NCBI GenBank assembly: GCA_902779565.1
Contig: CACZCD010000006.1
Location: 11,413-75,412 of the forward strand
Reading direction: 5' to 3'
From: an uncultured bacterium
GTDB taxonomy: Bacteria > Verrucomicrobiota > Kiritimatiellia > RFP12 > UBA1067
DNA length: 64,000 nt
Positions 22,826 to 39,451 of this stretch are shown in pieces. Under the pieces are notes generated by a model. That model was not told the DNA's origin and searched no databases. It saw nothing but the letters and a program-made list of their open reading frames with translations. Both the position numbers and the translations under genes were made by a program. Within the stretch, counting starts at the first letter, position 1; every line of letters starts with the position of its first letter.

Positions 22826-24528
22826 AATCCACCGCCGCAACGGGCACGGCCTTCTGCCTGCCGACCCTACGCGCGGAGGCGCGCCCCGTGCTGACGGTCG
22901 GCCTGATGAGTGACACCCACCTCACGCGCGAACCATCCTCCGCCGTCCGCTCGCGTCTGGCGATGGAGCTTTTCAAGAAGCTCGGCGCGGACGTGATCGC
23001 CCATCTCGGTGACCTCGCCGACTGGCATTACAAAGAGGCGTACACCTTCTACCGTGAGGCGCTCGATGCCGTCTTCCCGCCGTCCACCCGTCGCCCAGAG
23101 CTGCTGTACGCCTTTGGCGACCACGACGCCCTCGATCCCGCTCGCCGCAAGGAACCGCGCGCCAGCTGGCGCGGCGACTGTCGTCAGAGCTTTGCCGACA
23201 TGGCGGCGCGTCTCGGTATCGACCATGGCTACTCCGACCTCAAGGTGATCGCGGGCTATCCGTTCCTCATCTTCCCGCAGACCCTCGACAGTCAGCTCAC
23301 CCTCGCCGACTACGAGCGCACGATCGCCGAGACCTGCGCGAAGTTCCCGTCTGGTCCGGTGTTCGTGCTGGAGCATCCTCCGGCGTATCAGACGACCTAC
23401 AACTCCTGCTTCCAGGATCCGCGCCGCCGCGCCGTTTTGGACAAGTTCCCGCGTGTCGTGGACATCTGCGGACACAAGCACGCCTCCGTCAAGAATGAAC
23501 TCTGCATTTGGCAAGGAACCTTCACGGCGATCCAGACGAGTTGCCTCCAGAAGTGGTACGGGCTCAACATCGGCGGGCGAATCGTCGGGAAGGAGTCCTG
23601 GTGCGTTTGCGTGATGCAGGTGTTTCCGGATCGCCTTGTGATCCGCCGCTATGATGTACGCGATGGCGTCGAGTTCCGTCCGGACGCGCCTTGGACGGTG
23701 CCGTTGCCGTTTGTGTCCGAAACCGCTCCGCTCACCGTCCCCGCGCGGCGGCGCACGGAGCGTGCGGCGGCGTTCCCGGCAGGGGCGGCGCCTTCTGTGG
23801 AGGTGGATGGCACGCCATTTTCGCAGGTCGGCGTGAAGTTCCCCACCGCCACCGATCCTGACATCGTGCTCCACTACCGCGTGGAAGCCGCCCGGCGGAA
23901 CGCCGCCGGCGCATGGGAGAGGTCCGTCAGCGCCGACGTTTTCGGTGACTTCTACGAACGCCCGGTCGATCGGAAGGGGACGCTTTCGTGGAACTTCGAT
24001 TCGGCGCTGTTTGATGCCGGCGGTGAATACCGGTTTACGGTTACGCCCGTCGGATTCTTCGGCACGGAGGGTGCTCCGATTTCCTGCCTCTGGCGTGCGC
24101 CGGAGAAGGTGCTCTCTGAGGTCGTCTGGCGGTGCGACAATCCCATGGAGGAGCTCAAGTTTGTGGGCGCCGCGAAGACCCATCGCGAGGGCGACTGGCT
24201 TGTCTGTGGTCCGGGCGAGTTCAGGATCGATCCGCCGCCGGAGGCGTTCAAGGGACGCAAGGGCGATCGGTTCACCTTCGTCGCGGAGATGCAGACGGTG
24301 CAGACCGCTGTTCCGGTTGGTGTGGCGTTCGGTTTGTCGCGTGCCGTATGGTCTGGCGGACTTCTTACGCCGCTTGGCGATTCCGGCATGGTACGCTATG
24401 CGCTCACAGAAACGTTGGCGGGGGATAAGCCGAAGTGGGCGTTCAAATTCGCCGGCCATGGCAACCTCAAGGTGCGCTTCGCGAAACTCTGGATCCAGAG
24501 GCGGGGGAAAGCGCCAGATGGTATTTGA
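22798..24528 (+). CDS. TAT-secreted metallophosphoesterase (calcineurin-like)
   Basis: RRSFLKS twin-arginine motif; GDLADW, GDHD, HKH phosphoesterase motifs. Confidence 0.75.
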   Translation: MPICRRSFLKSTAATGTAFCLPTLRAEARPVLTVGLMSDTHLTREPSSAVRSRLAMELFKKLGADVIAHLGDLADWHYKEAYTFYREALDAVFPPSTRRPELLYAFGDHDALDPARRKEPRASWRGDCRQSFADMAARLGIDHGYSDLKVIAGYPFLIFPQTLDSQLTLADYERTIAETCAKFPSGPVFVLEHPPAYQTTYNSCFQDPRRRAVLDKFPRVVDICGHKHASVKNELCIWQGTFTAIQTSCLQKWYGLNIGGRIVGKESWCVCVMQVFPDRLVIRRYDVRDGVEFRPDAPWTVPLPFVSETAPLTVPARRRTERAAAFPAGAAPSVEVDGTPFSQVGVKFPTATDPDIVLHYRVEAARRNAAGAWERSVSADVFGDFYERPVDRKGTLSWNFDSALFDAGGEYRFTVTPVGFFGTEGAPISCLWRAPEKVLSEVVWRCDNPMEELKFVGAAKTHREGDWLVCGPGEFRIDPPPEAFKGRKGDRFTFVAEMQTVQTAVPVGVAFGLSRAVWSGGLLTPLGDSGMVRYALTETLAGDKPKWAFKFAGHGNLKVRFAKLWIQRRGKAPDGI

Positions 24529-27500
24529 GCCGGGACAGAAAATCGGTGCATACAAAATAATCCGCCGTCTCGGACAAGGCGGCATGGGGGCGGTGTATCT
24601 CGCACAGGCACCAGACGGGGAGCTGTACGCTATCAAGGTGATGACGTCGAAGGTCGAGGACGATGGTTCGCACACCTGTGAGCGATTTCTTCGTGAAGGC
24701 GAGTTTGCACGCAATATTCGCCATCCTAATCTCATTGCGGTCTATGAGGTTCAAGTCGATCCCTCTACTGGCCTGAATTATATCGTGATGGAATATGCGC
24801 CCGGTGGTAGCATACGGGATCGTTTGTCCAAGGAAGGGCGATTTGACATAGCCGAGGCGGTGGAGATAATACGACAGGTGGCCTATGGACTTGCCGCGGC
24901 CCATCAGCACGGGGTCGTCCATCGCGACATCAAGCCGGATAATATCCTTTTTGCCGCAGACGGGACCCCCAAGCTCGCTGACCTCGGCGTTGCTAAATTT
25001 ACGGATGGCCCGAAGAAGATGACAATGACTTTGGCCGAGGAAGTCGTTGGAACCCCCGCATACATGGCGCCCGAGCAGATGATGGATGCGCACAAGGTTG
25101 ATTCGCGCGCCGACATCTATGCGCTAGGTGTCGTGTTCTACGAGATGTTGGCCGGGGAACGCCCGAATGAAAGTGATACTTACTTGCAGCTGCTGGCGAA
25201 GGCCGTGAAAGGCATCCCTCTTCCCAGTGTGCGCAAGATGAGGCCGGAGGTCTCGGCGGCCCTCGTGCAGATTCTCAACGTGATGTGTGCAATACGAGCC
25301 GACGACAGGTTCGATTCCTCGCAGAAGTTGATTGATGTATTGGAGCGGCTCAAGCGAGAAGGTCTTGACACGCATTTGCGTCTTCGCCAACCGCCGAATC
25401 GCCATCGTCGTCGGCTGCTTGCCCTATCGTTTCTTTTGGGATTGTCATTCCTTGCCATTGGTGCTGTTGCATACGACAGGCTGGCAACATTCGTCGAACA
25501 TTACGGCGATTGGGTGGACGAATGGGGCATTCCGTCCGGCCGCATTCCGCTTGATGAAAAGATTGCCGAGAAGCGCGATCATTTCACGTTTGAGTACCGT
25601 GGTCGCAGTTCGTTCTTCGGAAAGCGCGTCCTACGACGCGTGACGCAAAGGGATATCTTTGGATTCTTCAAATGCACGAAAGACATGATGAACGGCAGAC
25701 GTCCAGAAATCATGGACATTGCCTATGGAGAGGACGGTCGACTGGCTTATATCGACCATGTAAAGCCAAGCGGACGAATCGAGCTCAGATGCCTGTACTC
25801 TGGTGCGGACAGGCGCTACATTGACTTTAAAGTTCCAGAACGGGATGGAGGGTTGATTGCAGCATTCCTATCGGACAGCTATGATGACGAAGATGATTTC
25901 GGAAACGGTGAGCGCAATGATACTGCCCGGATCCGCCGCAATGTAGTGACTCGCGATAAGTATGGGCGCATTGTCAAGGTGGAATTCATGATGAATGATT
26001 CCAATGAACCTACGGCTGATTCAGATGGGTTCTTTGGGAGGGTTTTTGAAAGGGATGAGATGGGACGGGTCTCCTCCATGTACCACATTGACGAGCATGG
26101 AAAGATGGCAGTGGGTGAGTGTGGCGTTGCATTCGTCCGACAGGCCTATAACACGGACGGAAACCTTCGCGAGATAGCATGGTATGACACCTCGACAAAT
26201 GCCGTTCTTTCTGCAAACGGCTATGCATCTCAACTTTTTGATTATGACGATTTCGGGCGTTGTATTAGTGAAACCTACCGCGGCATTGATGGAAAGCCAT
26301 GTTTGTCACCCAGTGACGGGTATGCCGGGAGTAAAACGACGTTTGATGCAGAAAACAGAATTATGAGGACGATGTATCTAGGTCTGGACGGGAAGCCAAA
26401 ATACGTCAATAATGGATTTGGAGCTGGAGAGGAGGCGACTGTCGATCTTGCCAATCATACGCCATGTCATGTGCGAACAATTCTCCTTGACGAGGATGGC
26501 GAGCCTCGGTCATGCAGAGAGGGATATGCGATAATTGAGCGGTTCTTCGTAAAAGGGATGGAGGTGGAACGGAAATATTTTGATGTGGACGGGAGGCCGG
26601 CCGTCGGAACATATGAATTCCATCGCCGTCAGAAAATATATGATTCCTTTGGAAATCTAAGTGAGATTCGATTTTATGGGACCGACGGCAAGTTGTGCAG
26701 TCATTCGGACGGTATGGCTATCATAACCCATCGCCACGACAGTGCGGGGCGTATGGTTGAACGGAGATTTCGTGACAAGCACGAAAAACCATGTAAAATC
26801 AAATTTGGATATGCGGTAGAAAGATTGCGATACGACTCTTCCGGAAATCTTGTGGAACTCATTTATCTGGACGAGGCAAACAATCCATGTGAAACGAGTC
26901 ATGGATATGCCTCCGTCAGACAGAAATTTAATGCCGAGGGGCGTCTAGTCCGTTGGGAATGTCTATCGAAAGATGGGCGCCCGCCAACAAACAGGATTCC
27001 TGTTGAGGAATATTCCCGTGAGAAGCATGGCCGTATTACTGAGATTCGCCATTGTGATGCATCTGGTGCGCTGTGTGCGAATAAGTCGGGAGTGGCTAGG
27101 ATCACATGTGCATACGATGGACGAGGCCGCAGGGTGAAGGTTGATTCCTACGCTCCGGATGGGAGTCGGATGGGGGTTGCCATTCACTCTGAATATGATT
27201 CGAGAGGATGCGAGACGCTTAGAGAATATATCGGAACAAATGGATGCTTGACAACAGACAGTGTTTGGGGATGCAAGCGTATGCGCATGCGTTATGACGA
27301 CTTCAACAATTGCATTGAGCGAAGTTTCTATGATGAACACGAAAAACCTATGCTAAACCACCATACGTCACAGAAACCTTTTGGCATCTTCCGCATCACT
27401 TATGCAGTGAATCGACAAACCGGAATGACCGAAAAACGATACTATGGTGTGGACGGAAAGCCTTGCTTGTGCGCACGTGGATACGGCGGTCTGCGGGATT

Positions 27501-27976
27501 TTATGGACTCTGAAATTGAACGTCAGGCGTATATTGAATTCCTTGGACTTGGCGGAACGCGTAAGAATCTCCCCAAAGAAGCATGGGGCGGAGGAGGTTT
27601 CTTTGGCTTTGAACAGAGATTCAATTCGCGCGGAGACATTGTATGGAAGATGCACTTTGACGAAGACTACCAATATGTCATGCGTCATGACGAGTGTGGA
27701 TTTCTGGAGGTGCATGACGTGACTGGACGAAAGATCGCACGTCTGCATCTTGGCATGGATGGGAAGCCGCACAAGACGACGCGCGGCGAATGGGGCTGGT
27801 ACTTGCCGGCCGATGCGGACTTAAACGGCAACAAACAGAAGCGCCAGCCAATTAAAGACGAGGGACAGGCTCAGAAGCTGTTTGCGCAGGGAATGGCGGC
27901 GATCGTTGCGCCACGAAACCGATTTGTCGAGGAGTGGAAAAAGGTTCGGCTTGAAAAGGTTCCAAAGCAACTCTGA
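24518..27976 (+). CDS. Ser/Thr protein kinase, one TM, then about 850-aa extracytoplasmic YD (Rhs-like) repeat region
   Basis: Hanks kinase motifs (GQGGMGAVY, AIK, HRDIKPDN, DLG, APE); TM LALSFLLGLSFLAIGAVAY; at least 12 repeats of YDxxGR....Y.G.DGKPC; the repeat region has lower GC. Confidence 0.8.
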   Translation: MVFEPGQKIGAYKIIRRLGQGGMGAVYLAQAPDGELYAIKVMTSKVEDDGSHTCERFLREGEFARNIRHPNLIAVYEVQVDPSTGLNYIVMEYAPGGSIRDRLSKEGRFDIAEAVEIIRQVAYGLAAAHQHGVVHRDIKPDNILFAADGTPKLADLGVAKFTDGPKKMTMTLAEEVVGTPAYMAPEQMMDAHKVDSRADIYALGVVFYEMLAGERPNESDTYLQLLAKAVKGIPLPSVRKMRPEVSAALVQILNVMCAIRADDRFDSSQKLIDVLERLKREGLDTHLRLRQPPNRHRRRLLALSFLLGLSFLAIGAVAYDRLATFVEHYGDWVDEWGIPSGRIPLDEKIAEKRDHFTFEYRGRSSFFGKRVLRRVTQRDIFGFFKCTKDMMNGRRPEIMDIAYGEDGRLAYIDHVKPSGRIELRCLYSGADRRYIDFKVPERDGGLIAAFLSDSYDDEDDFGNGERNDTARIRRNVVTRDKYGRIVKVEFMMNDSNEPTADSDGFFGRVFERDEMGRVSSMYHIDEHGKMAVGECGVAFVRQAYNTDGNLREIAWYDTSTNAVLSANGYASQLFDYDDFGRCISETYRGIDGKPCLSPSDGYAGSKTTFDAENRIMRTMYLGLDGKPKYVNNGFGAGEEATVDLANHTPCHVRTILLDEDGEPRSCREGYAIIERFFVKGMEVERKYFDVDGRPAVGTYEFHRRQKIYDSFGNLSEIRFYGTDGKLCSHSDGMAIITHRHDSAGRMVERRFRDKHEKPCKIKFGYAVERLRYDSSGNLVELIYLDEANNPCETSHGYASVRQKFNAEGRLVRWECLSKDGRPPTNRIPVEEYSREKHGRITEIRHCDASGALCANKSGVARITCAYDGRGRRVKVDSYAPDGSRMGVAIHSEYDSRGCETLREYIGTNGCLTTDSVWGCKRMRMRYDDFNNCIERSFYDEHEKPMLNHHTSQKPFGIFRITYAVNRQTGMTEKRYYGVDGKPCLCARGYGGLRDFMDSEIERQAYIEFLGLGGTRKNLPKEAWGGGGFFGFEQRFNSRGDIVWKMHFDEDYQYVMRHDECGFLEVHDVTGRKIARLHLGMDGKPHKTTRGEWGWYLPADADLNGNKQKRQPIKDEGQAQKLFAQGMAAIVAPRNRFVEEWKKVRLEKVPKQL

Positions 27977-28034
27977 GGCTTTATAATATGAATCACTTTC
28001 AATCAAGAAGGTGACGGGGAGATTTGAAACTGCC

Positions 28035-28997
28035 ATGCTGAGAAATGGATATATTGGCCGGTTGGCGCCAAGCCCGACGGGCGCCTTGCATCTTGGCAAT
28101 GTGCGCACGTTCATGGTTGCGTGGCTCCGTGCGCGTCAGGCCGGCGGCAAGGTGATCCTGCGCATGGAGGATCTTGACCATCCCAAACACAAGCCGGGCG
28201 CGGAGGTGCAGGCGATTGAGGATCTCCGTTGGCTCGGGTTCGACTGGGATGAGGCGTTCACGCAGAGTGAACGGAAGGGGCTTTATGCCGAGGCGCTTGC
28301 GCGACTTCGCGCACAGGGGCTTGCCTATCCGTGCGTCTGCTCGCGTAGCGACATCGAGGCCGTGCAGTCCGCGCCGCACGAAGGGGAGCAGCTCCGCTAT
28401 CCGGGAACGTGCCGGGATCGCTTTGGTTCATGGGCGGAGGCCTCCGCATGGAAGACCTCCCACTGCGGGAAGGGCGGACCGGCTACGTCGCCCATGCCCT
28501 GCTGGCGTTTTCGCACGCGCGAGGGCGCGCGTGTGGCGTTTGAGGACGGCTTCGCCGGACATTACGAGATGGACGTGTGGGAGACGTTGGGCGATTTCCC
28601 GCTTGCGCGAGACGAGGAGGGCGCGGGTTACGCGATAGCCGTGACCGTGGATGACGCCGCGATGGGCGTTACCGAGGTTGTGCGAGGGGATGATCTTTTG
28701 CCGGCGACGCCGCCGCAGATCCTATTGTATCAGGCGTTGGGACTTCCGGTGCCGGTCTTCTTCCACGTGCCGCTCGTGGTGGGGCCGGACGGGCGGCGTC
28801 TTGCGAAGCGGCATGGCGATACGCGCATTGCGAGTTTTTGCGAGGCCGGTGTCTCGCCAGAACGTCTCATCGGTTTCCTGGCCCGTTCGCTGGGGCTTAT
28901 TGAAAACGAAAGGCCGATCGGACTTCGCAGTCTGATCGGTCTCCTCGATCCCGCACGCATTCCGCGCGGGCCTCTCGTGTACCAAGGTCTTACTTGA
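28035..28997 (+). CDS. gluQ: glutamyl-Q tRNA(Asp) synthetase
   Basis: Truncated class I GluRS catalytic domain only, HLGN (HIGH) motif, about 320 aa; alternative start 28011. Confidence 0.75.
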   Translation: MLRNGYIGRLAPSPTGALHLGNVRTFMVAWLRARQAGGKVILRMEDLDHPKHKPGAEVQAIEDLRWLGFDWDEAFTQSERKGLYAEALARLRAQGLAYPCVCSRSDIEAVQSAPHEGEQLRYPGTCRDRFGSWAEASAWKTSHCGKGGPATSPMPCWRFRTREGARVAFEDGFAGHYEMDVWETLGDFPLARDEEGAGYAIAVTVDDAAMGVTEVVRGDDLLPATPPQILLYQALGLPVPVFFHVPLVVGPDGRRLAKRHGDTRIASFCEAGVSPERLIGFLARSLGLIENERPIGLRSLIGLLDPARIPRGPLVYQGLT

Positions 28998-29340
28998 CAA
29001 CGAGCTTGGAGTTGAACGTGCCCTTGTCGTTCGGCACGAACTCTGTGTTCTGGTCATCGGTGGCCCACTTGTCGCCGATGATGAACTTGTACTGGTACTC
29101 GCCGGGTGCCAGTTTCACCGTTGCGGAATAGACGCCGTTCTTCTTCTTGAACGTCATCTTCTTCGCCTTGGTCTCCCAATCGGTGAAGGAACCTGCCAGA
29201 CGGACCTCCTGACCGGCCTCGGCGTGGACGGTGAACGTCACGCTCTTGAGAGCGACCTTCGGCGCCGCGGCCTTCTTGGCGGCCTTGGCGGGCTTCTTCT
29301 TCGTCGCCGTCTTGGCGGCGGCTTTCACTTGCTTCTTCAT
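28990..29340 (-). CDS. small protein: Lys/Ala-rich histone H1-like tail fused to a CBM48/AMPK-beta-type glycogen-binding domain
   Basis: N-terminal KAAAKTATKKKPAKAAKKAAAPK; C-terminal FTDWETKA...EYQYKFIIGDKW pattern. Confidence 0.65.
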   Translation of the reverse strand: MKKQVKAAAKTATKKKPAKAAKKAAAPKVALKSVTFTVHAEAGQEVRLAGSFTDWETKAKKMTFKKKNGVYSATVKLAPGEYQYKFIIGDKWATDDQNTEFVPNDKGTFNSKLVVK

Positions 29341-29470: not shown

Positions 29471-30679
29471 ATGGAAACAGCAGAGATTATTCACGATTTG
29501 GCGGTCAAGGCGCGTGCGGCGGCCGCCAAAATGCGGGCTTTTTCGACGGATCGCAAGAACGAGGCGCTCCTTGCTATCGCCGAGGCGCTTGAGGCGATGA
29601 AACCGCAGATTGACGCCGCGAACGCCGAGGATGTGGCGGCGGCGAAGGAAAACGGCCTTGCTCCGTCCATGGTGGATCGTCTTACGCTCACCGAGGCGCG
29701 GTTCAAATCCATGGTGGACGGTGTGCGGCATGTGGCGACGTTGCCGGATCCCGTGGACGAGGTCATTTGGGAGCGGGACCGTCCGAGCGGCATCCACATC
29801 ACGAAGGTGCGGCAGCCGTTCGGCGTGATCGCCGTTGTGTTCGAATCGCGTCCGAACGTGTTTGTCGATACGGCGGCGCTGTGCCTCAAGACGTCGAACG
29901 CGGTCATTCTGCGCGGCGGCAAGGAGGCGATCCGCTCGAACAAGGCGCTCAATGCGGCGGTGCGTGCAGGACTTGAGAAGGCCGGGCTGCCGATGGATGC
30001 GGTGCAGCTGGTGGAGACGACGGATCATGCGGGCGTGACGGCGCTCGTGCGTTCGGTGGGGCTTATCGATATCGCGATCCCGCGCGGCGGCGAGCGGCTC
30101 ATCCGCGCGATGTGCGAGGCGGCGCTCATCCCCGTGCTGAAGCACTACAACGGCATCTGCCATGTGTATGTGGACGACAAGGCCGATCTCGGCATGGCGC
30201 TTTCGATTCTCGACAACGCCAAGACGCAGCGCCCCGGCACGTGCAACGCGGCCGAGTGCCTGCTTGTGCAGAAGGATCTTGCGCCGCTGTTCCTCCCGAT
30301 GGTGAAGGCGTGGGCGGCGGACAAGGGTGTGACGCTCCATGAGGATGGCGTAGGGGTGGAGTATCTCTCGCTCGACCTGAATGTGGCGATCGTCAAGGAT
30401 GTGGACGAGGCGATCGCGTTCATCAACGAGCACGGGTCGCACCATTCGGACTGCATCGTCACGAACGACAAGGCGCGGGCGGAGTCGTTCCTGCACAACG
30501 TCGATTCGGCGGCGGTCTATTGGAACGCCTCGACGCGCTTCACGGACGGCGCGGAGTTCGGCATGGGCGCGGAGATCGGCATCTCCACCGACAAGCTCCA
30601 TGCGCGCGGTCCGATGGGTCTTGAGGAGCTTACGACCTACAAGTACACGGTCACTGGCGACGGTGCCCTTCGGAAATGA
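29471..30679 (+). CDS. proA: gamma-glutamyl phosphate reductase
   Basis: ALDH-fold ProA pattern along the whole length. Confidence 0.9.
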   Translation: METAEIIHDLAVKARAAAAKMRAFSTDRKNEALLAIAEALEAMKPQIDAANAEDVAAAKENGLAPSMVDRLTLTEARFKSMVDGVRHVATLPDPVDEVIWERDRPSGIHITKVRQPFGVIAVVFESRPNVFVDTAALCLKTSNAVILRGGKEAIRSNKALNAAVRAGLEKAGLPMDAVQLVETTDHAGVTALVRSVGLIDIAIPRGGERLIRAMCEAALIPVLKHYNGICHVYVDDKADLGMALSILDNAKTQRPGTCNAAECLLVQKDLAPLFLPMVKAWAADKGVTLHEDGVGVEYLSLDLNVAIVKDVDEAIAFINEHGSHHSDCIVTNDKARAESFLHNVDSAAVYWNASTRFTDGAEFGMGAEIGISTDKLHARGPMGLEELTTYKYTVTGDGALRK

Positions 30680-31389
30680 TTCCAACCGCAGAACAGCTCG
30701 ACGAATGGTTCAAGGCCGGGACGATGAAGCGTCTCGGCATGGGATCGCGCCGTGCCTGCTATGCCATCCCCGATACGAATCTGTGCGTGAAATGCTATCG
30801 GAGTGACGAGGAGATTACGGAAGGCCGATATCCGGGGCGTGCGCCACTGATGCCACTTGCGCCGACTGTTGTCCGTGAAATCAAGAAATACCGTTTTGAT
30901 GAACGGCGCAATACCTGTTGCAGTGAGTATCGCTATTGGAAGACCCTCGCGCAATGCCTCCCCTCCGATTTGATGTCGGTTTTCCCAACGATGGTCTGTT
31001 GTCTGGATGTTCCTTTTCGGGGGTGGTGCATCGTCGAGAACATCATCGCAAATGATGACGGAAGCGATGCCCGGAATTTTCATGAGGTCTTCAAATCGGC
31101 TGAGCCATCCGAGCGATGTCGTCTCCTTGGGGCTTTTGACTGGCTCATTGATCAATTGATCGACCATGCCGTGCGCTTTTATGATCCGCAGAATGTTCTT
31201 GTGACGAAGGGGAAAGATGGTTCCTTCCATCTGCGGATTGCGGATTTTGAGCCGGCAGAACGGACGTTCGTGTCAATCGGCAACCTTTCGCCGTTTTTTG
31301 TGCGTCGAAAGGTCAGGCGGCGGTTCGCCCGCTATCAGAGAATGTTTGGCATCGGGAGCGTTGCCGGTGGCTCATATGAAGGGAAATGA
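30676..31389 (+). CDS. YrbL / PhoP-regulatory-network family protein (kinase-like fold)
   Basis: LGMGSRRACYAIPDTNLCVKCY matches the YrbL N-terminal signature LGTGRHRKCYAHPED..CIKIVY; PQNVLV motif. Confidence 0.65.
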   Translation: MIPTAEQLDEWFKAGTMKRLGMGSRRACYAIPDTNLCVKCYRSDEEITEGRYPGRAPLMPLAPTVVREIKKYRFDERRNTCCSEYRYWKTLAQCLPSDLMSVFPTMVCCLDVPFRGWCIVENIIANDDGSDARNFHEVFKSAEPSERCRLLGAFDWLIDQLIDHAVRFYDPQNVLVTKGKDGSFHLRIADFEPAERTFVSIGNLSPFFVRRKVRRRFARYQRMFGIGSVAGGSYEGK

Positions 31390-31398
31390 GGGGACCGC

Positions 31399-32313
31399 AT
31401 GAGCGACGAACCGATCTCCATGTCATTCTGCATTTCGGACAGCTACGCGCAGCATCTTGCGGTGGTGCTGACGAGCGTGCTCGCCAACAATCCGTCGTCG
31501 CGTTTCGTGTTCCATGTGCTTCATAGCGGGGTTACACCGGAGAATCAGGCACGGGTGAAGAAGCTTGAGAAGTCGTATTCCAACTGTGAGCTTCGTTTCC
31601 ATACGGTGGACATGGCGGCGTTCGCCAACTTTCCGATCCCGCCTGGTCTTGAACACGTGACACGGGAGACGTATTTTCGCTATCTGCTGCCGGATATCCT
31701 TCCGGACGAGTCGCGTACGATCTATTCGGATGTAGATGTCCTCTGCGTTGCGGATATCGCCAAGATCTGGACGATGGATCTAGACGGCATGCTGATGGCC
31801 GCCGTGCGCAACTACAAAGGCGAAGCGCGCGGCGATAGGCGCGATATCGTGAAATTCGGATTCGCTCCCGACTCCCCGTACTTTTTCACAGGTTTTCTTG
31901 TGATGGATCTTGCGGCAATGCGCGCCGGTAACTACGTCAGGCGGCTCATGGATGCCACGGTCTGCTATGGCGAGCGCGTGACGTTCATCGATCTCGACAT
32001 CATGAATCTTGTCTGTGAGGGTCGCATAAAGGAAGTTGACGCGACATGGAACGAGACGGGGCGGTATTCGTTTTTCCGCCGTGACGTGAAGATCTGGCAC
32101 TTTCTCGGGTTCACGCAGAAGCCGTGGTGCAACATCTGGAAGAACTATACCTGGCTCCCCTACCTGAAATATCTGCTCAAGTCGCCGTACCGCATGAACG
32201 CGCTGCGCTTCGTGTGGGGGCATGTCAAGGGGTTCTTCTTCTTCAAGTACACGAAAAGGGGGGTTACGCGTTATCTTGTGTGCGGCCTGCTCGTGTGGAA
32301 AGGAAGGGCATGA
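31399..32313 (+). CDS. glycosyltransferase family 8
   Basis: GT8 fold with DxD (YSDVDVL) and the characteristic WN/HF motifs. Confidence 0.85.
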   Translation: MSDEPISMSFCISDSYAQHLAVVLTSVLANNPSSRFVFHVLHSGVTPENQARVKKLEKSYSNCELRFHTVDMAAFANFPIPPGLEHVTRETYFRYLLPDILPDESRTIYSDVDVLCVADIAKIWTMDLDGMLMAAVRNYKGEARGDRRDIVKFGFAPDSPYFFTGFLVMDLAAMRAGNYVRRLMDATVCYGERVTFIDLDIMNLVCEGRIKEVDATWNETGRYSFFRRDVKIWHFLGFTQKPWCNIWKNYTWLPYLKYLLKSPYRMNALRFVWGHVKGFFFFKYTKRGVTRYLVCGLLVWKGRA

Positions 32314-32870
32314 AGGCATTGGTTTCGTTTCTTGCGGCCCTGATACCGCTGCCGGGTCTGCGCCGGAAGTTTCGCCGGCGGCTTTTGAGTTGGGCCTTCA
32401 CGTATGGCCCGCGCAGACGCGCCAAATCTTTCGGGCCTCATTCTTTTGCGACGGGGCGGTGCGTTCTGTCCAAGCACACCATTGTCGGCGACGGGTCTGG
32501 CCTTGGCGGCGTTGTGGTGTATGGCGACGGGGATGTGAAGATCGGCGACCACGTGTCGATTGGCCCCGGCCTTGTCATTCAGACGCAGAATCACGATTAC
32601 GAAGGTGAGACCTTGCCGTTTGGGCTTAGATTCATGTGCAAGCCGGTGTTGATCGATGATTGCGTGTGGATTGGCATGAATGTCATGCTTCTGCCCGGCA
32701 CACATATTGGAGAGGGCGCCATCATCCAGATGGGCAGTGTCGTGCATGGCGAGATCCCCCCATGCGCCATTGCGGGCGGTAATCCCGCAAAGGTCTTTGC
32801 CTGGCGAGACAGGGCGCATTATGATGAGTTGAAGTCGCAACAACGATTCTTGGGAAAAAGACAAGGATGA
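32310..32870 (+). CDS. hexapeptide-repeat (left-handed beta-helix) O-acetyltransferase
   Basis: [LIV]G hexapeptide repeats; ATGA-coupled. Confidence 0.75.
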   Translation: MKALVSFLAALIPLPGLRRKFRRRLLSWAFTYGPRRRAKSFGPHSFATGRCVLSKHTIVGDGSGLGGVVVYGDGDVKIGDHVSIGPGLVIQTQNHDYEGETLPFGLRFMCKPVLIDDCVWIGMNVMLLPGTHIGEGAIIQMGSVVHGEIPPCAIAGGNPAKVFAWRDRAHYDELKSQQRFLGKRQG

Positions 32871-32904
32871 GAGTTCATGTTATCGTCGTGAATGGAGGGA
32901 TGGC

Positions 32905-34098
32905 ATGTCAAAGCGCATTCTTATTTTTGGAATAGGGAACATCAATAATCTGGGTGACAATCTTCTTATTGAAACCATGCAGTGGCTCGTGCGTGGCCTC
33001 TTGCCAGATTGTGAGGTCCGGTCTGCGAGTTTTGTCCCGAATCGTGCTGATCTGCGCTGCGGTTACCGGTGGAGCAAGCGGGGCTCGGATTTATTTTATC
33101 GTTTGCTCGTTAAACCTTTCGCCGGCGCGGTTCGGTACAGGTTTGAAGACCTGTATTACCGCTTGAGGTATGGACATTATTTTCGTGATGAAATAGAAGG
33201 TGCGGATGCCATTGTCTATGCTGTCGGAATGTTGAAATACGTCACGCAGGACCATAGTTATTTGTTTAACATGATCAATGGGATCGCCGCCGAAAAACAG
33301 ATCCCTGTGTTCATGAATGCGATGAGCGTCGCCGAGCGAGACGATCATGATTGGCGCTCGCGCCAATTGTTGCGGGCTGTCAATGTCCCCAGTGTGCGAA
33401 TGGTGACGACGCGCGACGGCGAACAGGGGCTTGAACGGCTTCGGCGGAATTGGATACGCCGTGAAGAGATCGAAACAGATTGGGTGGGGGATCCGGCATT
33501 GTGGGCGCCAGAATGTTACGGCATCCGTAAAGACCCCCAGGCGCAGAAGGTCGGCATAAATGTTATCCGCGGGAATATTTTTCAAAGCTATTGCGGGGGC
33601 GTGACGGAAGCCCAGTTGTTGGCGGCCTACGCAGAATTGTTGAGGGATCTCGACAGACGGGGAATTGACTGGGTGCTGTTTTCCAATGGTGCGCCCTGCG
33701 ACCAAGAGTTTGGCGAACGGTTGCTGTCTGAGATTGGCGCACCGGCGTCTTGTTTATTGCCGCGACCGGAAAATACGCGCCGTTTTCTCGAATACATCTC
33801 GTCTTTTCGAGCCGTCTTTGCGGGGCGGCTTCATGCCTGTATCACGTCTTTTGCCTTGGATGTTCCCGTGGCGGGGCTGTTATGGGACGACAAGCTGAGA
33901 TTTGTCGCGCGTTCGTTTGGGGTTCTGCCGTTTTTCACGCGCGCGGAGGAGCTTTCGGGCGAGCTCTTGGCGACGCGGCTTGTCCAGGCTTCTGAGACGC
34001 CGTTGGATGATGCGCTTCGCGGTCAGCTCAAGAATCGTGCGCATCGCGCTCTGGAACGATTCCTAAAATCAGTTCAGGATGAAGGGGCAAGGAAATGA
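32905..34098 (+). CDS. polysaccharide pyruvyl transferase family protein
   Basis: PS_pyruv_trans-like pattern, 397 aa. Confidence 0.65.
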   Translation: MSKRILIFGIGNINNLGDNLLIETMQWLVRGLLPDCEVRSASFVPNRADLRCGYRWSKRGSDLFYRLLVKPFAGAVRYRFEDLYYRLRYGHYFRDEIEGADAIVYAVGMLKYVTQDHSYLFNMINGIAAEKQIPVFMNAMSVAERDDHDWRSRQLLRAVNVPSVRMVTTRDGEQGLERLRRNWIRREEIETDWVGDPALWAPECYGIRKDPQAQKVGINVIRGNIFQSYCGGVTEAQLLAAYAELLRDLDRRGIDWVLFSNGAPCDQEFGERLLSEIGAPASCLLPRPENTRRFLEYISSFRAVFAGRLHACITSFALDVPVAGLLWDDKLRFVARSFGVLPFFTRAEELSGELLATRLVQASETPLDDALRGQLKNRAHRALERFLKSVQDEGARK

Positions 34099-35243
34099 TG
34101 AGTGGTCTTAGGATGAGATTCGTCAGCTGGTGTTGTCGCCGTCTCTGGAAAACCAAGCCGGGCAAGGTGTTGTTCATCAACCACACGGGCAGCGGATACA
34201 AGTGCAACCCCAAGTATGTTTGCGAGGAACTGTTACGGCGTGGATATGCGGGTGAGCTTGTCTGGATGGGAGGACTTTCAAGAACGGCTCGCAAGGAGAT
34301 CCCCGCTCGCGTGGCATGTGCTTCGCTGCATGGGCTCCGGGCGCTTTGGCATCTGGCGACGGCTGAAGTCTGGGTCGATAACGTCAGCGTGCTGCGGTTT
34401 TTGAATCGCGGGTTTGTGAAGAAACCCGAACAGATCTATATTCAGACCTGGCACGGCTCAATGGGGCTCAAGCTTGATGGCCTTGACACGAAGACGGCGG
34501 ATCCCGGCACCGTCGCGGCGCTGAAACGCGAGACGCCGCTTGTTGATTTCTGCATCGCCAATTCTGAGCACGAAGCGCAGTTTTACGCGCGCAATTGGTT
34601 TGGGCCGCGCAAGATCGTGAAATACGGCCATCCGCGCAACGACGTCTTTTTCCGCGACCGCGAACCGCTTCGGGACAAGGTCTGTCGCCGCCTGGGGCTT
34701 TCGCCGGCCACGAAGCTCTTCCTGTATGCACCCACGTTTCGCGATGGCGGAACGGCCGATGCGGAGCTTGATGTGCGAAGCACGGTTGCTGCCTTGGAGG
34801 AGCGCTTTGGAGGGGAATGGCGCTTTTTGTTCCGCCCACATCCCAAGGCGAAAGGGCATGGCCTTGCGCCCGGCGCGGCCGACGTCGTCAACGTCGCGGC
34901 CTATGATGACATTCAGGAGCTTCTTGTGGCGGCCGATGCCATGGCGACAGACTATTCGAGCTGCATCTGCGACTTCCTGCTCGGCGGGCGCCCCGGATTC
35001 ATTTTCGCGCCAGATCTCGATGCCTATGCGAATGGGAGAGGGCTCTGCTATCCGTTGGAAACAACGCCGTTCCCGGTTGCGAAGACGTCCTCCGGTCTTG
35101 CCGACGCCATTCGGGCGTTCGATGCTGTTCGATATGCCGAAGCCCGAGAGTCCTTTCTTGAAGCCAGAGGATGTGTGGAGGACGGGCAGGCGTCCGCTCG
35201 TGTGGCGGACTTGATTGTTGCGCAGACTTTAGGTTCAAGATAA
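34095..35243 (+). CDS. CDP-glycerol (polyol-phosphate) glycerophosphotransferase, TagB/TagF family
   Basis: Glyphos_transf pattern; ATGA-coupled. Confidence 0.8.
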   Translation: MMSGLRMRFVSWCCRRLWKTKPGKVLFINHTGSGYKCNPKYVCEELLRRGYAGELVWMGGLSRTARKEIPARVACASLHGLRALWHLATAEVWVDNVSVLRFLNRGFVKKPEQIYIQTWHGSMGLKLDGLDTKTADPGTVAALKRETPLVDFCIANSEHEAQFYARNWFGPRKIVKYGHPRNDVFFRDREPLRDKVCRRLGLSPATKLFLYAPTFRDGGTADAELDVRSTVAALEERFGGEWRFLFRPHPKAKGHGLAPGAADVVNVAAYDDIQELLVAADAMATDYSSCICDFLLGGRPGFIFAPDLDAYANGRGLCYPLETTPFPVAKTSSGLADAIRAFDAVRYAEARESFLEARGCVEDGQASARVADLIVAQTLGSR

Positions 35244-35249
35244 AAGAGG

Positions 35250-36008
35250 GTGTGGAGCATGGAAGGGAAAGACAGAGTGGTGGCAATCGTGTTCGCTGGC
35301 GGCAGCGGGACGCGTATGGGGAATGCGATTCCCAAGCAATTCATTGAGGTTGCCGGATGCCCAATCCTGGCTCATACGCTGAAGTTGTTTCAGCGCCATC
35401 GCCGCATTGACGTGATTTACATGGCTGTACATGCCGATTACGTGTCGTACGCGGAGGAGCTCGCCAACCGCTATGGTATCGGGAAGCTGGCTGGCGTCAC
35501 CAGAGGGGGCGACAGCGCACAGGCCTCCATCTACAACGCGCTTGCACTCGCGCGCGAATCGGGTGAGCCGGACGATGCGATCGTGCTCATACATGATGGC
35601 GTTCGACCGTATGTTGAGGACTCCGTCATCGACGCGAACGTTGACTCTGTTGTGCAGCATGGAAATGCAGTGACCTATACGCCGTGTGTAGAGACGCTTG
35701 TGATCAGCCACGACGGCAAGGCGATCGATGCCTTGCCGTACCGACGCGAATCCTATTCCGCCCAAGCTCCCCAAAGTTTCAGGCTTGGCGATATCATGGC
35801 TGCGCATGACCGCATTCGCGCGAGACCGGAAGGCTATAAGGACATGATCGATCAAGCCACAATCTGTTGGACGCTTGGCATCCCCATCCATCTGGTGCCG
35901 GGAAATCGCGGAAACATCAAGATCACCACACCCGAGGACGTGTACACGTTCAAGGCACTTATGCAGTACAGGGAGGACAAACGGAATGGCCGCACTTCAG
36001 TTGACTGA
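35250..36008 (+). CDS. IspD/TarI-family cytidylyltransferase (CDP-alditol synthesis)
   Basis: VAIVFAGGSGTRMG...PKQF P-loop-like motif of 2-C-methyl-D-erythritol-4-P / ribitol-5-P cytidylyltransferases. Confidence 0.75.
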   Translation: MWSMEGKDRVVAIVFAGGSGTRMGNAIPKQFIEVAGCPILAHTLKLFQRHRRIDVIYMAVHADYVSYAEELANRYGIGKLAGVTRGGDSAQASIYNALALARESGEPDDAIVLIHDGVRPYVEDSVIDANVDSVVQHGNAVTYTPCVETLVISHDGKAIDALPYRRESYSAQAPQSFRLGDIMAAHDRIRARPEGYKDMIDQATICWTLGIPIHLVPGNRGNIKITTPEDVYTFKALMQYREDKRNGRTSVD

Positions 36009-37050
36009 CAACCCGATCCTCCAGGAAGATCTGGAACGGATTGTGTCCTCGGATTTCGTGGATTGGGAGGAATTTCGCGGCAAGTCAATCCTGGTTACGG
36101 GAGCGACGGGTCTCATTGGCGGCGTTTTGGTTCGGGCGCTTGCGCTGGCGAATGCGGCGAGGGGCCTTGACCTGACGATCCTTGCAAATTTCCGGAACCG
36201 GCAGAAGGCCGACGTCTTGTTTGGCGCGGCGTATGCCCACGGGGTCGTTCCGCTGGTCGGAGACGTGCGCGAGCCGCTGAACTATGACGGTCCGGTGGAT
36301 TATTTGGTGCATGGCGCCGCCGATACCGCTTCGCGCACGATGGTCGAGAGGCCGGTGGAGACGGTGCAGACCATTCTGCGCGGCGCGGAAAACATGCTTG
36401 AACTGGCGCGAAACCGGAAATCCCGTGGCGTTGTTATGCTCTCCAGCATGGAAGTGTACGGCGTGCCGCGCACGGGGCAGGATCTTTTCAGGGAATCTGA
36501 TTATGGGTGCGTCGATCCGCTTTCTGTGCGGAACGGATATCCGGAGTCCAAGCGGATGGCCGAGAATCTTGCGGTCGCCTATGCCTCCGAGTACGGCGTG
36601 CCGGTCAGGATTGCGCGGCTTGTTCAGACCATTGGCCCTGGTGCGTCTGAGGACGATCGAAGAGTCTTTGCCGTGTTCTCGCGGGCAGCGGCTTCCGGGC
36701 AGGACATCGTCTTGAAGACGGATGGCTCCAGCACGCGTAATTACTGTTACTGTTCTGATGCGGTCACGGGTCTCCTCACGCTTCTGCAGCGAGGAACCGC
36801 AGGGCAGGCCTACAATGTCGGAAACGACGAAGCATTCCTATCCATTCGCGGCATGGCGCAAATGATCGCCGATTATGCGGGCGTCAAGGTGCTGTTTGAC
36901 ACGCGCCAGTCGCCGGAGGCGCAGGGATTCCCGCCATCGGCGGTCCTTCGGGTGTCCAGCGAACGGCTGCGGGAGTTGGGGTGGCGGCCCCAAGTGGGTC
37001 TCCGCCCGATGATCGAAAGACTTGTAAACGGGTGCCGGCATGTTTCCTGA
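35986..37050 (+). CDS. NAD-dependent epimerase/dehydratase (SDR)
   Basis: VTGATGLIGG Rossmann motif, YxxxK; GGGAGGA RBS before the internal ATG. Confidence 0.8.
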   Translation: MAALQLTDNPILQEDLERIVSSDFVDWEEFRGKSILVTGATGLIGGVLVRALALANAARGLDLTILANFRNRQKADVLFGAAYAHGVVPLVGDVREPLNYDGPVDYLVHGAADTASRTMVERPVETVQTILRGAENMLELARNRKSRGVVMLSSMEVYGVPRTGQDLFRESDYGCVDPLSVRNGYPESKRMAENLAVAYASEYGVPVRIARLVQTIGPGASEDDRRVFAVFSRAAASGQDIVLKTDGSSTRNYCYCSDAVTGLLTLLQRGTAGQAYNVGNDEAFLSIRGMAQMIADYAGVKVLFDTRQSPEAQGFPPSAVLRVSSERLRELGWRPQVGLRPMIERLVNGCRHVS

Positions 37051-37804
37051 ACGATTCCTACCTTGGCGAAACACGTGGTGGTGGCCGCGCTGGCGCGTGC
37101 CGTCGTTCCTCATGCTGCACAGCGTCGGCGAGGCCGTGACGGATCCTTGTTGCGCGAACAACACCATCCGTCCGGACGAGCTGCGCAACCTGGTGCGGGC
37201 GCTGGTAGACGAGGGGTATGAGTTCCGCACGTTCCGCGAGGCCTGTGAGAAGGGTGATCGCCGGACGATGTGCCTCACGTTTGACGATGGCTATGCCGAC
37301 AACTATCAGGTTCTTCTCCCGATCCTGCGGGAGCTGAACGTGCCGGCGACATGCTTTGCCACGAACCGGGGGGACGCGTCGTTCCCGCGCGAACGCTGGT
37401 CGGCAGAGGATCCCATTCCCGCCGACGCAGCGTTCCTGACGGCTGAGATGCTGCGTGAAATGGAGGCCAGCGGCCTCGTTGAGATCGGCGGCCATACGGC
37501 GGGCCACACAACGCTCACGAAGCTTTCCCTTGATGACGCGAGACGCGAAATTGACGACAACAAGGCTTGGCTGGAGGGTGTTTTGGGGCATGAAATCGTG
37601 AGCTTCGCCTATCCTCGCGGGGGCGAGAACGATCAAATCGTCAACCTTGTCAGGGAGGCGGGTTATCGGTATGCGGCGGCGATGGTCAAGAAAATGCGTT
37701 CCGTTGCGGCGGATCCCTATCGTGTCCACCGCCAGATAATTCCACGCGGAATGGAGACGTGGAAGAGTGTCCTTCTTGCCACGCGCGGAAAGTGGAAGAT
37801 ATGA
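37040..37804 (+). CDS. polysaccharide deacetylase (NodB homology)
   Basis: TFDDGY and His-containing NodB motifs. Confidence 0.8.
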   Translation: MFPERFLPWRNTWWWPRWRVPSFLMLHSVGEAVTDPCCANNTIRPDELRNLVRALVDEGYEFRTFREACEKGDRRTMCLTFDDGYADNYQVLLPILRELNVPATCFATNRGDASFPRERWSAEDPIPADAAFLTAEMLREMEASGLVEIGGHTAGHTTLTKLSLDDARREIDDNKAWLEGVLGHEIVSFAYPRGGENDQIVNLVREAGYRYAAAMVKKMRSVAADPYRVHRQIIPRGMETWKSVLLATRGKWKI

Positions 37805-37839
37805 AATCTGCGGAGGATGGAAGTGAGGTGGCTTAGACA

Positions 37840-38460
37840 ATGAAAAACGTGATTGATTTCGTGCGAGAGGTTCTCTTCTACGGCGCAGCCTGTTTGGTGT
37901 GGTCAGGGGTTGTACTCCTGGATGTCATGGTATTCAAGACCAATTGCGCAGAAAACGGCATTGTGGAGTCAAGTCAGCTTGTGGCGATTTTCGCAAGCGG
38001 TGTGTTGCTGATGGTGACGGCGGTGAAACATTCCGACAAGAGAGCGGGACTCGTCCTTGCCGGCGCATTCTTCATTGCGATGGCCATACGGGAGTTGGAC
38101 CAATTTTGGGATGGCGTCTGGCATGGCTTCTGGATAGTCCCGGAAATTGCCTTTTTGTCCGTAGTGGCTGCTTTTGTTCTATTCCACCGCAAAACAATTC
38201 ATCCTGGATTGAAAACTATCGCGGGAGATCGCGACTCGTCCGCTCTTTCCGTAGGAATTCTGATTGTTATGGGTTTTTCCCGAATCATCGGGCACAAGGC
38301 ATTCTGGAGGCTGCTTGCGCCGGGAGGTTCGTTTACAGTTCCGAAACGCTTCGCCGAGGAATCGTGCGAGTTGATAGGCTATTTTATTATTCTTGCATGG
38401 GCGATGAGATTCTTCTCACGCATGAGGGCTGAAAGAAAAAATGAAAATCGGGATCTATAA
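37840..38460 (+). CDS. integral membrane protein, hypothetical
   Basis: About 5 predicted TM helices. Confidence 0.5.
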   Translation: MKNVIDFVREVLFYGAACLVWSGVVLLDVMVFKTNCAENGIVESSQLVAIFASGVLLMVTAVKHSDKRAGLVLAGAFFIAMAIRELDQFWDGVWHGFWIVPEIAFLSVVAAFVLFHRKTIHPGLKTIAGDRDSSALSVGILIVMGFSRIIGHKAFWRLLAPGGSFTVPKRFAEESCELIGYFIILAWAMRFFSRMRAERKNENRDL

Positions 38461-39451
38461 AGACACTCTCGCCAATCGCCGTGGGGCGGATATGGCGGTG
38501 GAGAATCTCGCGTCTGCGCTTCAGGAGCGCGGCGCGAGATTTGGGGAACGGGGAATGGGGAGCGGGGAATGGGAAGTTGTCCTATTTGAGGAGCGCGAAT
38601 TCGAGGCTCGCATGAACGAACGGTGGGATGTCGTGATTTCCACCGGCACTAACGAACTCCTCGACCTCTACGACTATTTTTCTGTACGATCGACACGTTC
38701 TACACGGCTACCCCTATCCCCCGTTCCCCATTTCCCATTCCCCATAATCCAACAATTCCACACCAACCCCAAGAGCCAATTCAAGTGGAAACGGTTCGTC
38801 CGAAACTGGAAGATCAGAAGGGCGCTGCGCCACGTTGCCGCGATTCAGGTGTTGCGTGAAGAGGTCGTGCGGCAAGTTGCGAAGTATGGGCCGCCGGTTT
38901 CGGTGATCGGCAACTGGAGCGAATGGGAGGGACGGGCGCGGATGGAGCCGCCGAGGGGCCAGACAATTATCTATCCCGCCGTTTGGGGCAGGGGCAAGAA
39001 TCAGCGTCTTGCCGTAGAATCATTCGCTTCGGTTTCAAAGGATTTCCCGGGATGGTCGCTTGAACTCTATGGCAACGGGACTCCAACCTTCCCGCTGCCA
39101 GAGGGGGTGGTGCATAAAGGCTACTGCGATTTGGGTGCGGTTTATGCCTCCTGCGCATTTGTTGCATTTCCGTCGCTTGACGAGGGCTTCCCGCTGACGC
39201 TTGTTGATGCCGCAGCATTCGGCCGCCCGGCCGTTACAGTGTGCGATTGGGTCGGGGCCGCCGCCGTTGGCGGCGGAATCGTCGCCGAACCGACGGTCGC
39301 CTCCTATTCTGCCGCATTGCGGCGATTGATGTCCAGCGAAGAGCTGAGGTGCGAGATGGGAAGGGTCGCAAACCGATTCTGCCTGGAACGGTACTCCCGG
39401 AAGGTCATTTTGGACAAGTGGGAAACTTTGCTTGAAAGTGTGGTAAAATAG
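38441..39451 (+). CDS. glycosyltransferase family 4 (GT-B fold), N-domain carrying in-frame G-rich and C-rich repeat insertions
   Basis: C-terminal GT4 pattern (E..FP, FP.L.EGF, G.P.V); insertions at 38543-38574 and 38711-38744. Confidence 0.7.
   Translation: MKIGIYKDTLANRRGADMAVENLASALQERGARFGERGMGSGEWEVVLFEEREFEARMNERWDVVISTGTNELLDLYDYFSVRSTRSTRLPLSPVPHFPFPIIQQFHTNPKSQFKWKRFVRNWKIRRALRHVAAIQVLREEVVRQVAKYGPPVSVIGNWSEWEGRARMEPPRGQTIIYPAVWGRGKNQRLAVESFASVSKDFPGWSLELYGNGTPTFPLPEGVVHKGYCDLGAVYASCAFVAFPSLDEGFPLTLVDAAAFGRPAVTVCDWVGAAAVGGGIVAEPTVASYSAALRRLMSSEELRCEMGRVANRFCLERYSRKVILDKWETLLESVVK
38543..38574 (+). repeat. G-quadruplex-type tract GGGGAACGGGGAATGGGGAGCGGGGAATGGG, in-frame
   Basis: Encodes RFGERGMGSGEW. 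Confidence 0.8.
38711..38744 (-). repeat. same (GGGGAAY)n family in inverted orientation (C-rich on + strand), in-frame
   Basis: CCCCTATCCCCCGTTCCCCATTTCCCATTCCCC. Confidence 0.8.

Follow-up and report, generated by a model that had tools for sequence, protein, structure and literature searches.

A predicted single-pass receptor kinase with a YD-like repeat ectodomain from an uncultured Kiritimatiellia bacterium, and the large protein family that shares its outer module

The gene described here lies at positions 24518-27976 (forward strand) of a 64,000-nucleotide stretch, hereafter called the window, taken from contig CACZCD010000006.1 (assembly GCA_902779565.1) of an uncultured bacterium of the class Kiritimatiellia. 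It encodes a Hanks-type Ser/Thr kinase that is followed by a single transmembrane (TM) helix and by a long ectodomain made largely of YD-like repeats. The TM-plus-repeat module of this protein is common to a large and apparently undescribed family whose members carry TIR, nSTAND1 NTPase or Hanks kinase heads. We regard this family-level modularity, in which TIR, STAND and kinase domains are placed over one kind of ectodomain, as the more interesting result of our analysis, and the signature of allele exchange at the locus as the second. The protein itself is probably a single-pass receptor Ser/Thr kinase with its N-terminus inside and its C-terminus outside the cell membrane (type II topology) that senses a periplasmic or envelope ligand, although we hold this view with some reserve for reasons given below.

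The gene is real and bacterial. As the original prediction had it, the open reading frame (ORF) from 24518 to 27976 is continuous and encodes 1152 amino acids (aa) plus stop, and its start, at the ATG, overlaps the end of the upstream metallophosphoesterase gene by 11 nt. An identical gene call is obtained from an independent metagenome assembly (locus L081), where the gene is flanked by the same two neighbours and is 99.7% identical at the DNA level, such that the two proteins differ only by A11V. This second copy, together with four orthologues of 1152-1203 aa whose architecture is identical to that of the window protein, rules out the artificial joining of two ORFs during assembly, which had been raised as a concern at the outset. 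The closest relatives come from rumen and gut metagenome-assembled genomes (MAGs) labelled Victivallales, Lentisphaerae, Kiritimatiellae or Verrucomicrobia. One of these MAGs (GCA_016648615.1) holds two diverged copies, P0002 and P0003, with ectodomains that are 63% and 52% identical to that of the window protein. The close orthologues are all located on contigs of only 4.2-5.1 kb, and assemblies appear to break just outside the gene.

The kinase domain occupies aa 12-268 (24551-25321, forward strand) and is matched by Pfam Pkinase (PF00069) with 180.8 bits against a cut-off of 31.7 (E = 4e-53). A motif scan agrees with the earlier view that the catalytic motifs are complete: GQGGMG (aa 19), YAIK (aa 37), HRDIKPDN (aa 135), DLG (aa 155) and APE (aa 184) are all intact, and DLG is a tolerated variant of DFG. 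The best matches of the domain in NCBIfam and in the PDB are kinases of the PknB/StkP (PASTA) type. The PASTA-kinase model NF033483 (Stk1) reaches 238 bits against a cut-off of 450 through a match that is confined to the kinase (aa 12-285), and two further NCBIfam models, Mad6 (174 versus 460) and PglW (87 versus 990), also remain under threshold. When genome contigs were searched with the full protein, 78 loci were recovered, each through the kinase domain only and none with the repeat region. In the related clade of Planctomycetes, Verrucomicrobia and Chlamydiae (PVC), this kinase head evidently occurs with a wide variety of tails. Gut and rumen PVC MAGs of this kind encode many Hanks kinases, and the relatives found in the genome contigs include a soluble form of ~312 aa. 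Four loci from such MAGs (L003, L010, L011 and L012) carry this soluble paralogue with a conserved RRWWHRFGLSGKAST terminal tail, and at L010 it is directly followed by a second, much larger kinase that is fused to a histidine-kinase and receiver region. Given the source of its relatives, the window itself most likely derives from a gut or rumen bacterium of the PVC group.

A hydropathy scan places one TM helix after the kinase, at aa ~299-321 (25412-25480, forward strand), as had been proposed, and the same helix is present at the junction of head and repeats in most family members. The cluster RHRRR on the N-terminal side of the helix argues for an N-in/C-out orientation, which leaves the kinase in the cytoplasm and puts the remaining ~830 residues outside the membrane. 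This outer part abounds in D, G, R, Y and F and has 21 cysteines. The membrane-proximal part, aa 322-512 (25481-26053, forward strand), was delimited with the consensus of the family alignment A1 and with the strands of an AlphaFold model. It has a start that is conserved in the family (HYGDWVDEWGIPSGRIPL...) and hairpins that are irregular or degenerate, and it includes an acidic, disordered loop at aa ~453-469 that corresponds to a segment of low pLDDT (124-140) in the model.

The regular part of the ectodomain is an array of YD-like beta-hairpins at aa 513-1088 (26054-27781, forward strand), which is supported by sequence units, by a profile hidden Markov model (HMM) and by AlphaFold, and in which 13-18 units are detectable by sequence. 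The unit has the consensus GYAxxxxxYDxxGNxxxxxYFGxDGKPxL, and the family consensus in fuller form is KDGYAxxxxxYDERGNxTExAYFGxDGKPTLx. A dozen or more repeats of 40 aa had been predicted; the repeats proved real, but their period is 32 aa, which is the exact unit-to-unit spacing in 407 of 702 spacings from 75 homologues. As an independent test, a unit HMM was built from 476 units of distant relatives only, leaving out the window protein. This HMM scores the window protein at 283 bits and finds 13 units of at least 5 bits, whereas the best of 100 shuffled ectodomains reaches 4.8 bits and yields zero units. Tandem repetition at the DNA level is absent from the repeat-coding region, and therefore the array should be ancient rather than the product of a recent expansion.

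An AlphaFold2 model of aa 330-1152, built on an alignment of 59 sequences, has a pLDDT of 87.5 and a pTM of 0.83. It predicts 24 beta-hairpins with strands of 6-7 residues, followed by two helices, and a fragment of six repeats is modelled with a pLDDT of 94.9. The helices (786-799 and 806-818 of the model) form a C-terminal tail at aa ~1115-1147 (27860-27958, forward strand) that can also be recognized in the orthologues. This tail (LFAQGMAAIV..RNRFVEEWKKVRLEKVPK) is the best-conserved part of the ectodomain among orthologues, more so than the repeats. Only ~60 residues follow the repeats, and these are conserved rather than polymorphic among orthologues. The two-helix tail could serve as a plug, a cap or a partner-binding site.

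Our data support a distant relationship between these repeats and the YD repeats of Rhs proteins and teneurins, with a sequence link that is weak and runs through the YDxxGN half of the unit only. Pfam RHS_repeat (PF05593) scores 28 bits against a cut-off of 22 and TIGR01643 (YD_repeat_2x) scores 29.6 bits against 15.8, but both are summed scores in which no single stretch is significant. When a two-unit family profile was compared with PDB sequences, RhsP (1.7e-7), RhsA (4e-6), teneurin-3 (2e-4) and Tse5 (8e-4) were matched, always through the xYDxxGN half of the hairpin. A phmmer search of PDB sequences with the ectodomain gave no match, and the A1 family profile was dominated by kinase columns in the same database and was thus uninformative on the repeats.

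Structural comparison points the same way. Foldseek searches of the PDB with the full model return Rhs cores, the BC shells of Tc toxins and teneurins at E-values from 1e-25 to 1e-13, followed by OspA single-layer sheets. The six-repeat model can be placed on the VgrG-Rhs core and on TcdB2-TccC3 with a TMq of 0.52-0.53 and a root-mean-square deviation of 7-9 Å, whereas the full ectodomain model reaches a TM-score of only 0.10-0.32 to solved shells. All good Foldseek matches of both models are Rhs, Tc or teneurin shells or OspA, with no CROP, choline-binding or MORN protein among them. We had also considered clostridial CROP, choline-binding, glucan-binding and MORN repeats, which are brought to mind by the sequence YFGxDGK, but rejected them given that none has a significant Pfam match or appears among the fold matches. 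Pfam, the PDB profile search and Foldseek all point to the YD/Rhs kind and not to an unrelated beta-solenoid family. Thus, the YD kinship in the original prediction stands, but only the YDxxGN half matches canonical repeats, and the closed shell implied by its wording is unproven.

The models suggest that the local sheet is YD-like and that the period and the global geometry differ from those of YD shells. The window protein shares with the Rhs and TcB-TcC shells (RhsA, RhsP, Tse5, Tse15, TcdB2-TccC3 and YenBC) the YDxxG(R/N) hairpin motif, the single-layer antiparallel sheet and a local TMq of ~0.5. In contrast, its unit is 32 aa long and includes an extra GxDGKPxL loop, compared with ~21 aa for the canonical YD unit (a length implied by the name of the 42-position TIGR01643 'YD_repeat_2x' model). 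Its strands are short, it has no plug, aspartyl-protease core or toxin, and it is anchored to the membrane under a kinase.

The breadth of the family became apparent from an exhaustive phmmer search of 1.84 billion representative sequences with the ectodomain. Its hits number 3669 at E<=1e-3, of which 2305 reach E<=1e-10 and 916 reach E<=1e-30, and they include proteins of up to 3000 aa. Searches based on the ectodomain only reveal that the TM-plus-repeat module is common to proteins with very different N-termini. We collected 220 members and classified them by head, counting two members with two heads under both. TIR heads are the most frequent (75 members), followed by Hanks kinase heads (56) and nSTAND1 NTPase heads (43), and one member has a nucleoside phosphorylase (PNP) head. 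Another 47 members have no recognised head, and several of these begin with multi-TM N-termini or signal peptides. The non-kinase heads of ectodomain relatives match nSTAND1 plus AAA_16, or TIR_2/ThsB_TIR.

A single TM helix nearly always comes after the head, and in most of the 220 members it leads into the conserved membrane-proximal start and then the repeats. Some members terminate in PDZ or LolA domains, which act on proteins and lipoproteins of the envelope and are located after the repeats. Given that the heads that require ATP or NAD always stand before the TM helix, and that these domains of periplasmic types stand after the repeats, the repeats should be extracytoplasmic. We believe that the outer module is probably a widely reused surface sensor. 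The architecture had been singled out as an unusual one for a receptor; it does appear to be unstudied, but it is not rare, as the frequency of kinase heads shows. Searches of an open-access library for YD/RHS repeats combined with Ser/Thr kinase, TIR, STAND or nSTAND1 domains turned up no account of this architecture. A search of metagenome contigs with the ectodomain returned a single fragment of 1.2 kb.

Gene neighbourhoods are not conserved across the loci of the family, and those of individual members differ in what they suggest. A kinase-type member, P0049 (L087-L089, 709-10355), closes an operon that encodes an FHA-trypsin protein, an FHA protein, a PP2C phosphatase and an FHA-kinase, which is a classical phospho-signalling set. 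It is followed by an overlapping gene whose 183-aa product begins with a hydrophobic, signal-like stretch. The contig collection lists P0049 in 54 blocks, of which 24 contigs were read. The TIR-headed member that we examined stands alone, without an operon. In soil Verrucomicrobia (L082-L084, 6643-12643), three overlapping genes encode a 453-aa TIR_2 protein, the nSTAND1-TM-repeat protein P0018 and a 230-aa Tim44-like protein. This operon is a candidate for a membrane-linked conflict system that is absent from PADLOC. Conflict systems with nSTAND1 and TIR components have been described (Kaur et al. 2021, PMC8195603), and some of our ectodomain relatives carry such heads, in one case with the TIR partner gene in its operon, whereas the head of the window protein is a kinase and partners of this type are absent. 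A term search of that paper turned up no YD-repeat, Rhs or periplasmic sensor.

The nucleotide composition of the gene sets it apart from its surroundings. The window has a mean GC content of ~0.62 and the neighbouring genes are at 0.62-0.64, with GC at third codon positions (GC3) of 0.79, 0.84 and 0.70 in the three nearest. The kinase part is at 0.553 (GC3 0.63) and the repeats are at 0.494, well under the window mean, with the lowest GC3 in the window (0.49). The DNA coding for aa 513-1088 is the part of the gene with the lowest GC, and its GC3 ranges from 0.38 to 0.55. An AT-rich 3' two-thirds had been noticed by eye, and the low GC is confirmed; the boundary is not, since the drop starts at the start codon rather than near 25300 and includes the kinase part. 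GC at second codon positions (GC2) is ordinary (0.43), and therefore the anomaly resides at synonymous sites. Amino-acid composition as a cause of the low GC was rejected on the same grounds. The gene for orthologue P0005 has a GC3 of 0.65 between flanks at 0.79-0.81, and more distant loci of the family have little or no GC3 deficit relative to their flanks.

Comparison of the window strain with the strain of L081 reveals a tract of low divergence at 24445-28174, established by alignment and a Fisher test, that matches the gene almost exactly. Within the tract there are 11 differences in 3730 nt (0.3%), 10 of them synonymous and one non-synonymous. Outside it there are 12 differences in ~410 nt before the tract (2.9%) and 30 in 254 nt after it (11.8%), and the contrast between gene and flanks is strong (Fisher p = 3e-18). 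More generally, the flanks differ by 2-6% over aligned stretches and by up to 12% just beyond the tract. The tract looks like the result of recent recombination or transfer. The two strains also differ by an indel-rich stretch in gluQ, after the tract.

Among orthologues, kinase identities are 75-81% and ectodomain identities are 48-63%, and the ectodomain thus evolves about twice as fast as the kinase. P0005, whose ectodomain is 50% identical to that of the window protein, is encoded directly after uvrC, and the C-terminus of this UvrC is 84% identical to the UvrC encoded in the window 7 kb upstream of the kinase-repeat gene. This shared association indicates that the locus is old, as does a CBM48 gene that is found near the kinase gene here and near kinase paralogues in related Lentisphaerae MAGs. 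We infer from these few genomes an old receptor locus whose alleles diverge fast, chiefly in the ectodomain, and pass horizontally between lineages that differ in GC content. The low-divergence tract and the fast ectodomain both speak for such exchange, and we would best explain the anomaly in composition by an allele that entered an old locus through horizontal exchange and whose ectodomain evolves fast.

How might such a protein work? In the reading that we favour, an active Hanks-type kinase would sit on the cytoplasmic side, and the ~24 hairpins outside, mostly 32-residue units of Rhs/teneurin YD stock, would form a curved single-layer sheet, with the two conserved C-terminal helices at the end of the chain. 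The sheet would bind an extracytoplasmic ligand, which might be an envelope component or a foreign molecule. Binding would alter the oligomeric state across the single helix, and the kinase heads would then phosphorylate each other in trans and relay the signal to cytoplasmic substrates. This scheme is patterned on PASTA kinases (PknB, StkP and Stk1) and PknD, in which a Hanks head is likewise linked through one TM helix to an extracytoplasmic sensor made of repeats. The window protein is presumed to share their logic of activation, namely ligand-driven dimerisation. The ectodomains are quite different, with ~24 YD-like hairpins in 830 aa compared with 3-4 PASTA units or the NHL beta-propeller of PknD, and the window gene, unlike those of PASTA kinases, does not lie in a cell-division or peptidoglycan gene context.

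A second useful comparison is with the teneurins and bacterial teneurin-like proteins (PMC13018210, PMC5851990), which have the same type II topology: the N-terminal domain is inside the cell, a single TM helix follows, and YD-type repeats outside serve as a surface scaffold. Their superfold is composed of an FN-plug, an NHL propeller, the YD shell, an ABD and a toxin domain (PMC13018210). The window protein has none of the non-YD parts, and its intracellular portion is an enzyme. Toll-like receptors and plant receptor-like kinases are likewise built from an ectodomain of repeats, one TM helix and a TIR or Ser/Thr kinase domain on the cytoplasmic side. However, the family described here has the opposite orientation, with the head N-terminal, and YD-like hairpins instead of leucine-rich repeats, and the resemblance is one of analogy rather than homology.

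The phospho-signalling operon of P0049 counts in favour of a receptor kinase, but several points weigh against our reading. The neighbours of the gene are unrelated housekeeping genes, and the 64-kb window contains no gene for a ligand, a substrate, a phosphatase or an FHA partner; neither PP2C nor FHA genes are found in it. The poor global fit of the full ectodomain model to solved shells is a further difficulty, and the high pTM of that model could mean that the ectodomain is a closed body instead of offering an open surface for binding. The TIR and STAND heads elsewhere in the family suggest a role in conflict or immunity instead of ordinary signalling. With regard to the history of the locus, the argument for recombination is based on two strains only. 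The anomaly in composition may also be partly intrinsic to repeat-coding DNA, given that the repeat part has a GC3 that is 0.05-0.14 under that of the head in all four family loci examined.

The strongest competing explanation, though still a rather unlikely one, is that the protein is an immune-type receptor for envelope surveillance. The ectodomain would then recognize patterns in phage or competitor molecules at the cell surface, and the kinase would be an interchangeable alarm or effector head, in effect a defence kinase. Together, TIR and nSTAND1 heads outnumber kinase heads among the 220 members (75 and 43 versus 56), and the nSTAND1 member P0018 shares its overlapping-gene operon with a separate TIR protein. 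Moreover, an ectodomain that changes faster than the kinase and signs of horizontal allele exchange are both typical of conflict genes. In PADLOC, the head scores high against models of defence kinases such as PD-T4-6 and Mad6. However, these matches are confined to aa ~1-300 and capture only the generic kinase fold, and PknB-type models score equally well. PADLOC likewise recognises only generic TIR folds in the family, and none of its models covers the repeats or the nSTAND1 member. In addition, neither a defence island nor partner genes of defence kinases surround the gene, and the kinase-type member P0049 belongs to a signalling operon.

Less likely again is an envelope scaffold or adhesin-coupled regulator, in which the sheet would bind a self structure such as peptidoglycan, an outer-membrane lipoprotein or a capsular or lipopolysaccharide (LPS) polymer, and would report on envelope state or growth as PASTA kinases do. 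The parallel with PknB and StkP, the terminal PDZ or LolA domains of some relatives, the conserved C-terminal tail and a cluster of LPS or polysaccharide genes 3 kb downstream are all consistent with this idea. Yet a sensor for a self ligand should be conserved, and the ectodomain is instead the fast-evolving part of the protein. The variable gene neighbourhoods also argue against such a role, and heads of the TIR and STAND types fit poorly with a housekeeping role at the envelope.

The protein is neither an Rhs toxin nor teneurin-like, and we consider it very improbable that it packs a C-terminal toxic domain inside a closed cocoon of repeats and delivers it. It is true that Rhs, Tc and teneurin shells give the best matches in both sequence and fold, that the pTM of 0.83 is compatible with a compact body, and that teneurins share the type II topology. 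But the motifs PxxxxDPxG and DPxG are absent anywhere in the protein, and with them the aspartyl-protease core, and no NCBIfam match to the RHS-associated-core family is found at E<=1. The short, conserved tail leaves no polymorphic toxin tip, and the earlier statement that core and tip are missing is thereby upheld. Pfam does not detect an NHL domain, and the model contains only hairpins and two helices, without an FN-plug. No immunity gene, PAAR, VgrG or Tc partner is encoded near the gene, the N-terminus is a cytoplasmic kinase anchored by its TM helix, and the full model has a TM-score of at most 0.32 to any shell. Finally, two genes or a chimeric contig fused at the composition boundary would account for the step in GC3 from 0.63 to 0.49, but we dismiss this idea as virtually untenable, given the continuous reading frame, the independent copy with the same flanks, the recurrence of the head-TM-repeat order in four orthologues and dozens of distant relatives, and a GC3 that is higher in the head than in the repeats in other family loci as well.

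The remainder of the window offers some additional observations. The metallophosphoesterase encoded upstream has a twin-arginine-type RRSFLK motif near its N-terminus, and the gene downstream encodes a GluQ-tRNA synthetase. Neither Rfam families nor tRNAs are found in the window, and hence the gene is not part of a tRNA-linked island. The gene at 28990-29340 (reverse strand) encodes a small protein that begins with a lysine/alanine-rich segment and contains a CBM48/AMPK1_CBM glycogen-binding domain. In related Lentisphaerae MAGs a CBM48 gene is also found near kinase paralogues, as in the window; at loci L010 and L016 a 64%-identical homologue is located ~2 kb from them, which hints at a conserved linkage between the CBM48 gene and the kinase. 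A run of genes at 30676-39451 has a GC3 of 0.56-0.73, under that of the remaining window, and is probably an LPS or polysaccharide island. Among its products are a YrbL/PhoP-network kinase-like protein, a family 8 glycosyltransferase and a polysaccharide pyruvyl transferase. Within it, a 206-aa ORF at 37840-38460 (GC 0.496, GC3 0.56) without a Pfam match ranks second in AT richness among the coding stretches of the window. A 368-aa AAA-type ATPase (49488-50594; weak matches to AAA_25, AAA_14 and AAA_22) has a GC3 of 0.61 among genes at 0.75-0.85 and is possibly another acquired gene.

What these findings mean for the biology of the family depends on which reading is correct. Should the protein turn out to be a receptor kinase of the ordinary kind in which only the ectodomain is uncommon, our work would be of modest value, although it would still provide a defined family, a repeat consensus and constructs for structural and ligand-binding studies. 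If our favoured reading is true, gut and rumen bacteria of the PVC group would have a new receptor class for Ser/Thr kinase signalling. The YD-repeat fold, so far a matter of toxin cocoons and teneurin scaffolds, would then also serve in a signalling ectodomain, with a distinct and very regular unit of 32 residues. We also put forward, as a tentative possibility, a broader view in which the family is a widespread class of bacterial single-pass surface receptors that combine one YD-like recognition domain with interchangeable TIR, STAND or Hanks heads. Such proteins would be convergent counterparts of Toll-like receptors and plant receptor kinases and would sense phage, competitors or host molecules, and the gene in the window would be the version with a kinase output, whose fast ectodomain and horizontally exchanged alleles would be marks of an arms race. 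To our knowledge, nearly all characterised bacterial immune sensors (STAND/Avs, TIR/Thoeris and CBASS) detect invaders inside the cell. If this broader view is true, the common extracellular repeats shared by TIR, STAND and kinase heads would make this large family a candidate for extracellular surveillance.

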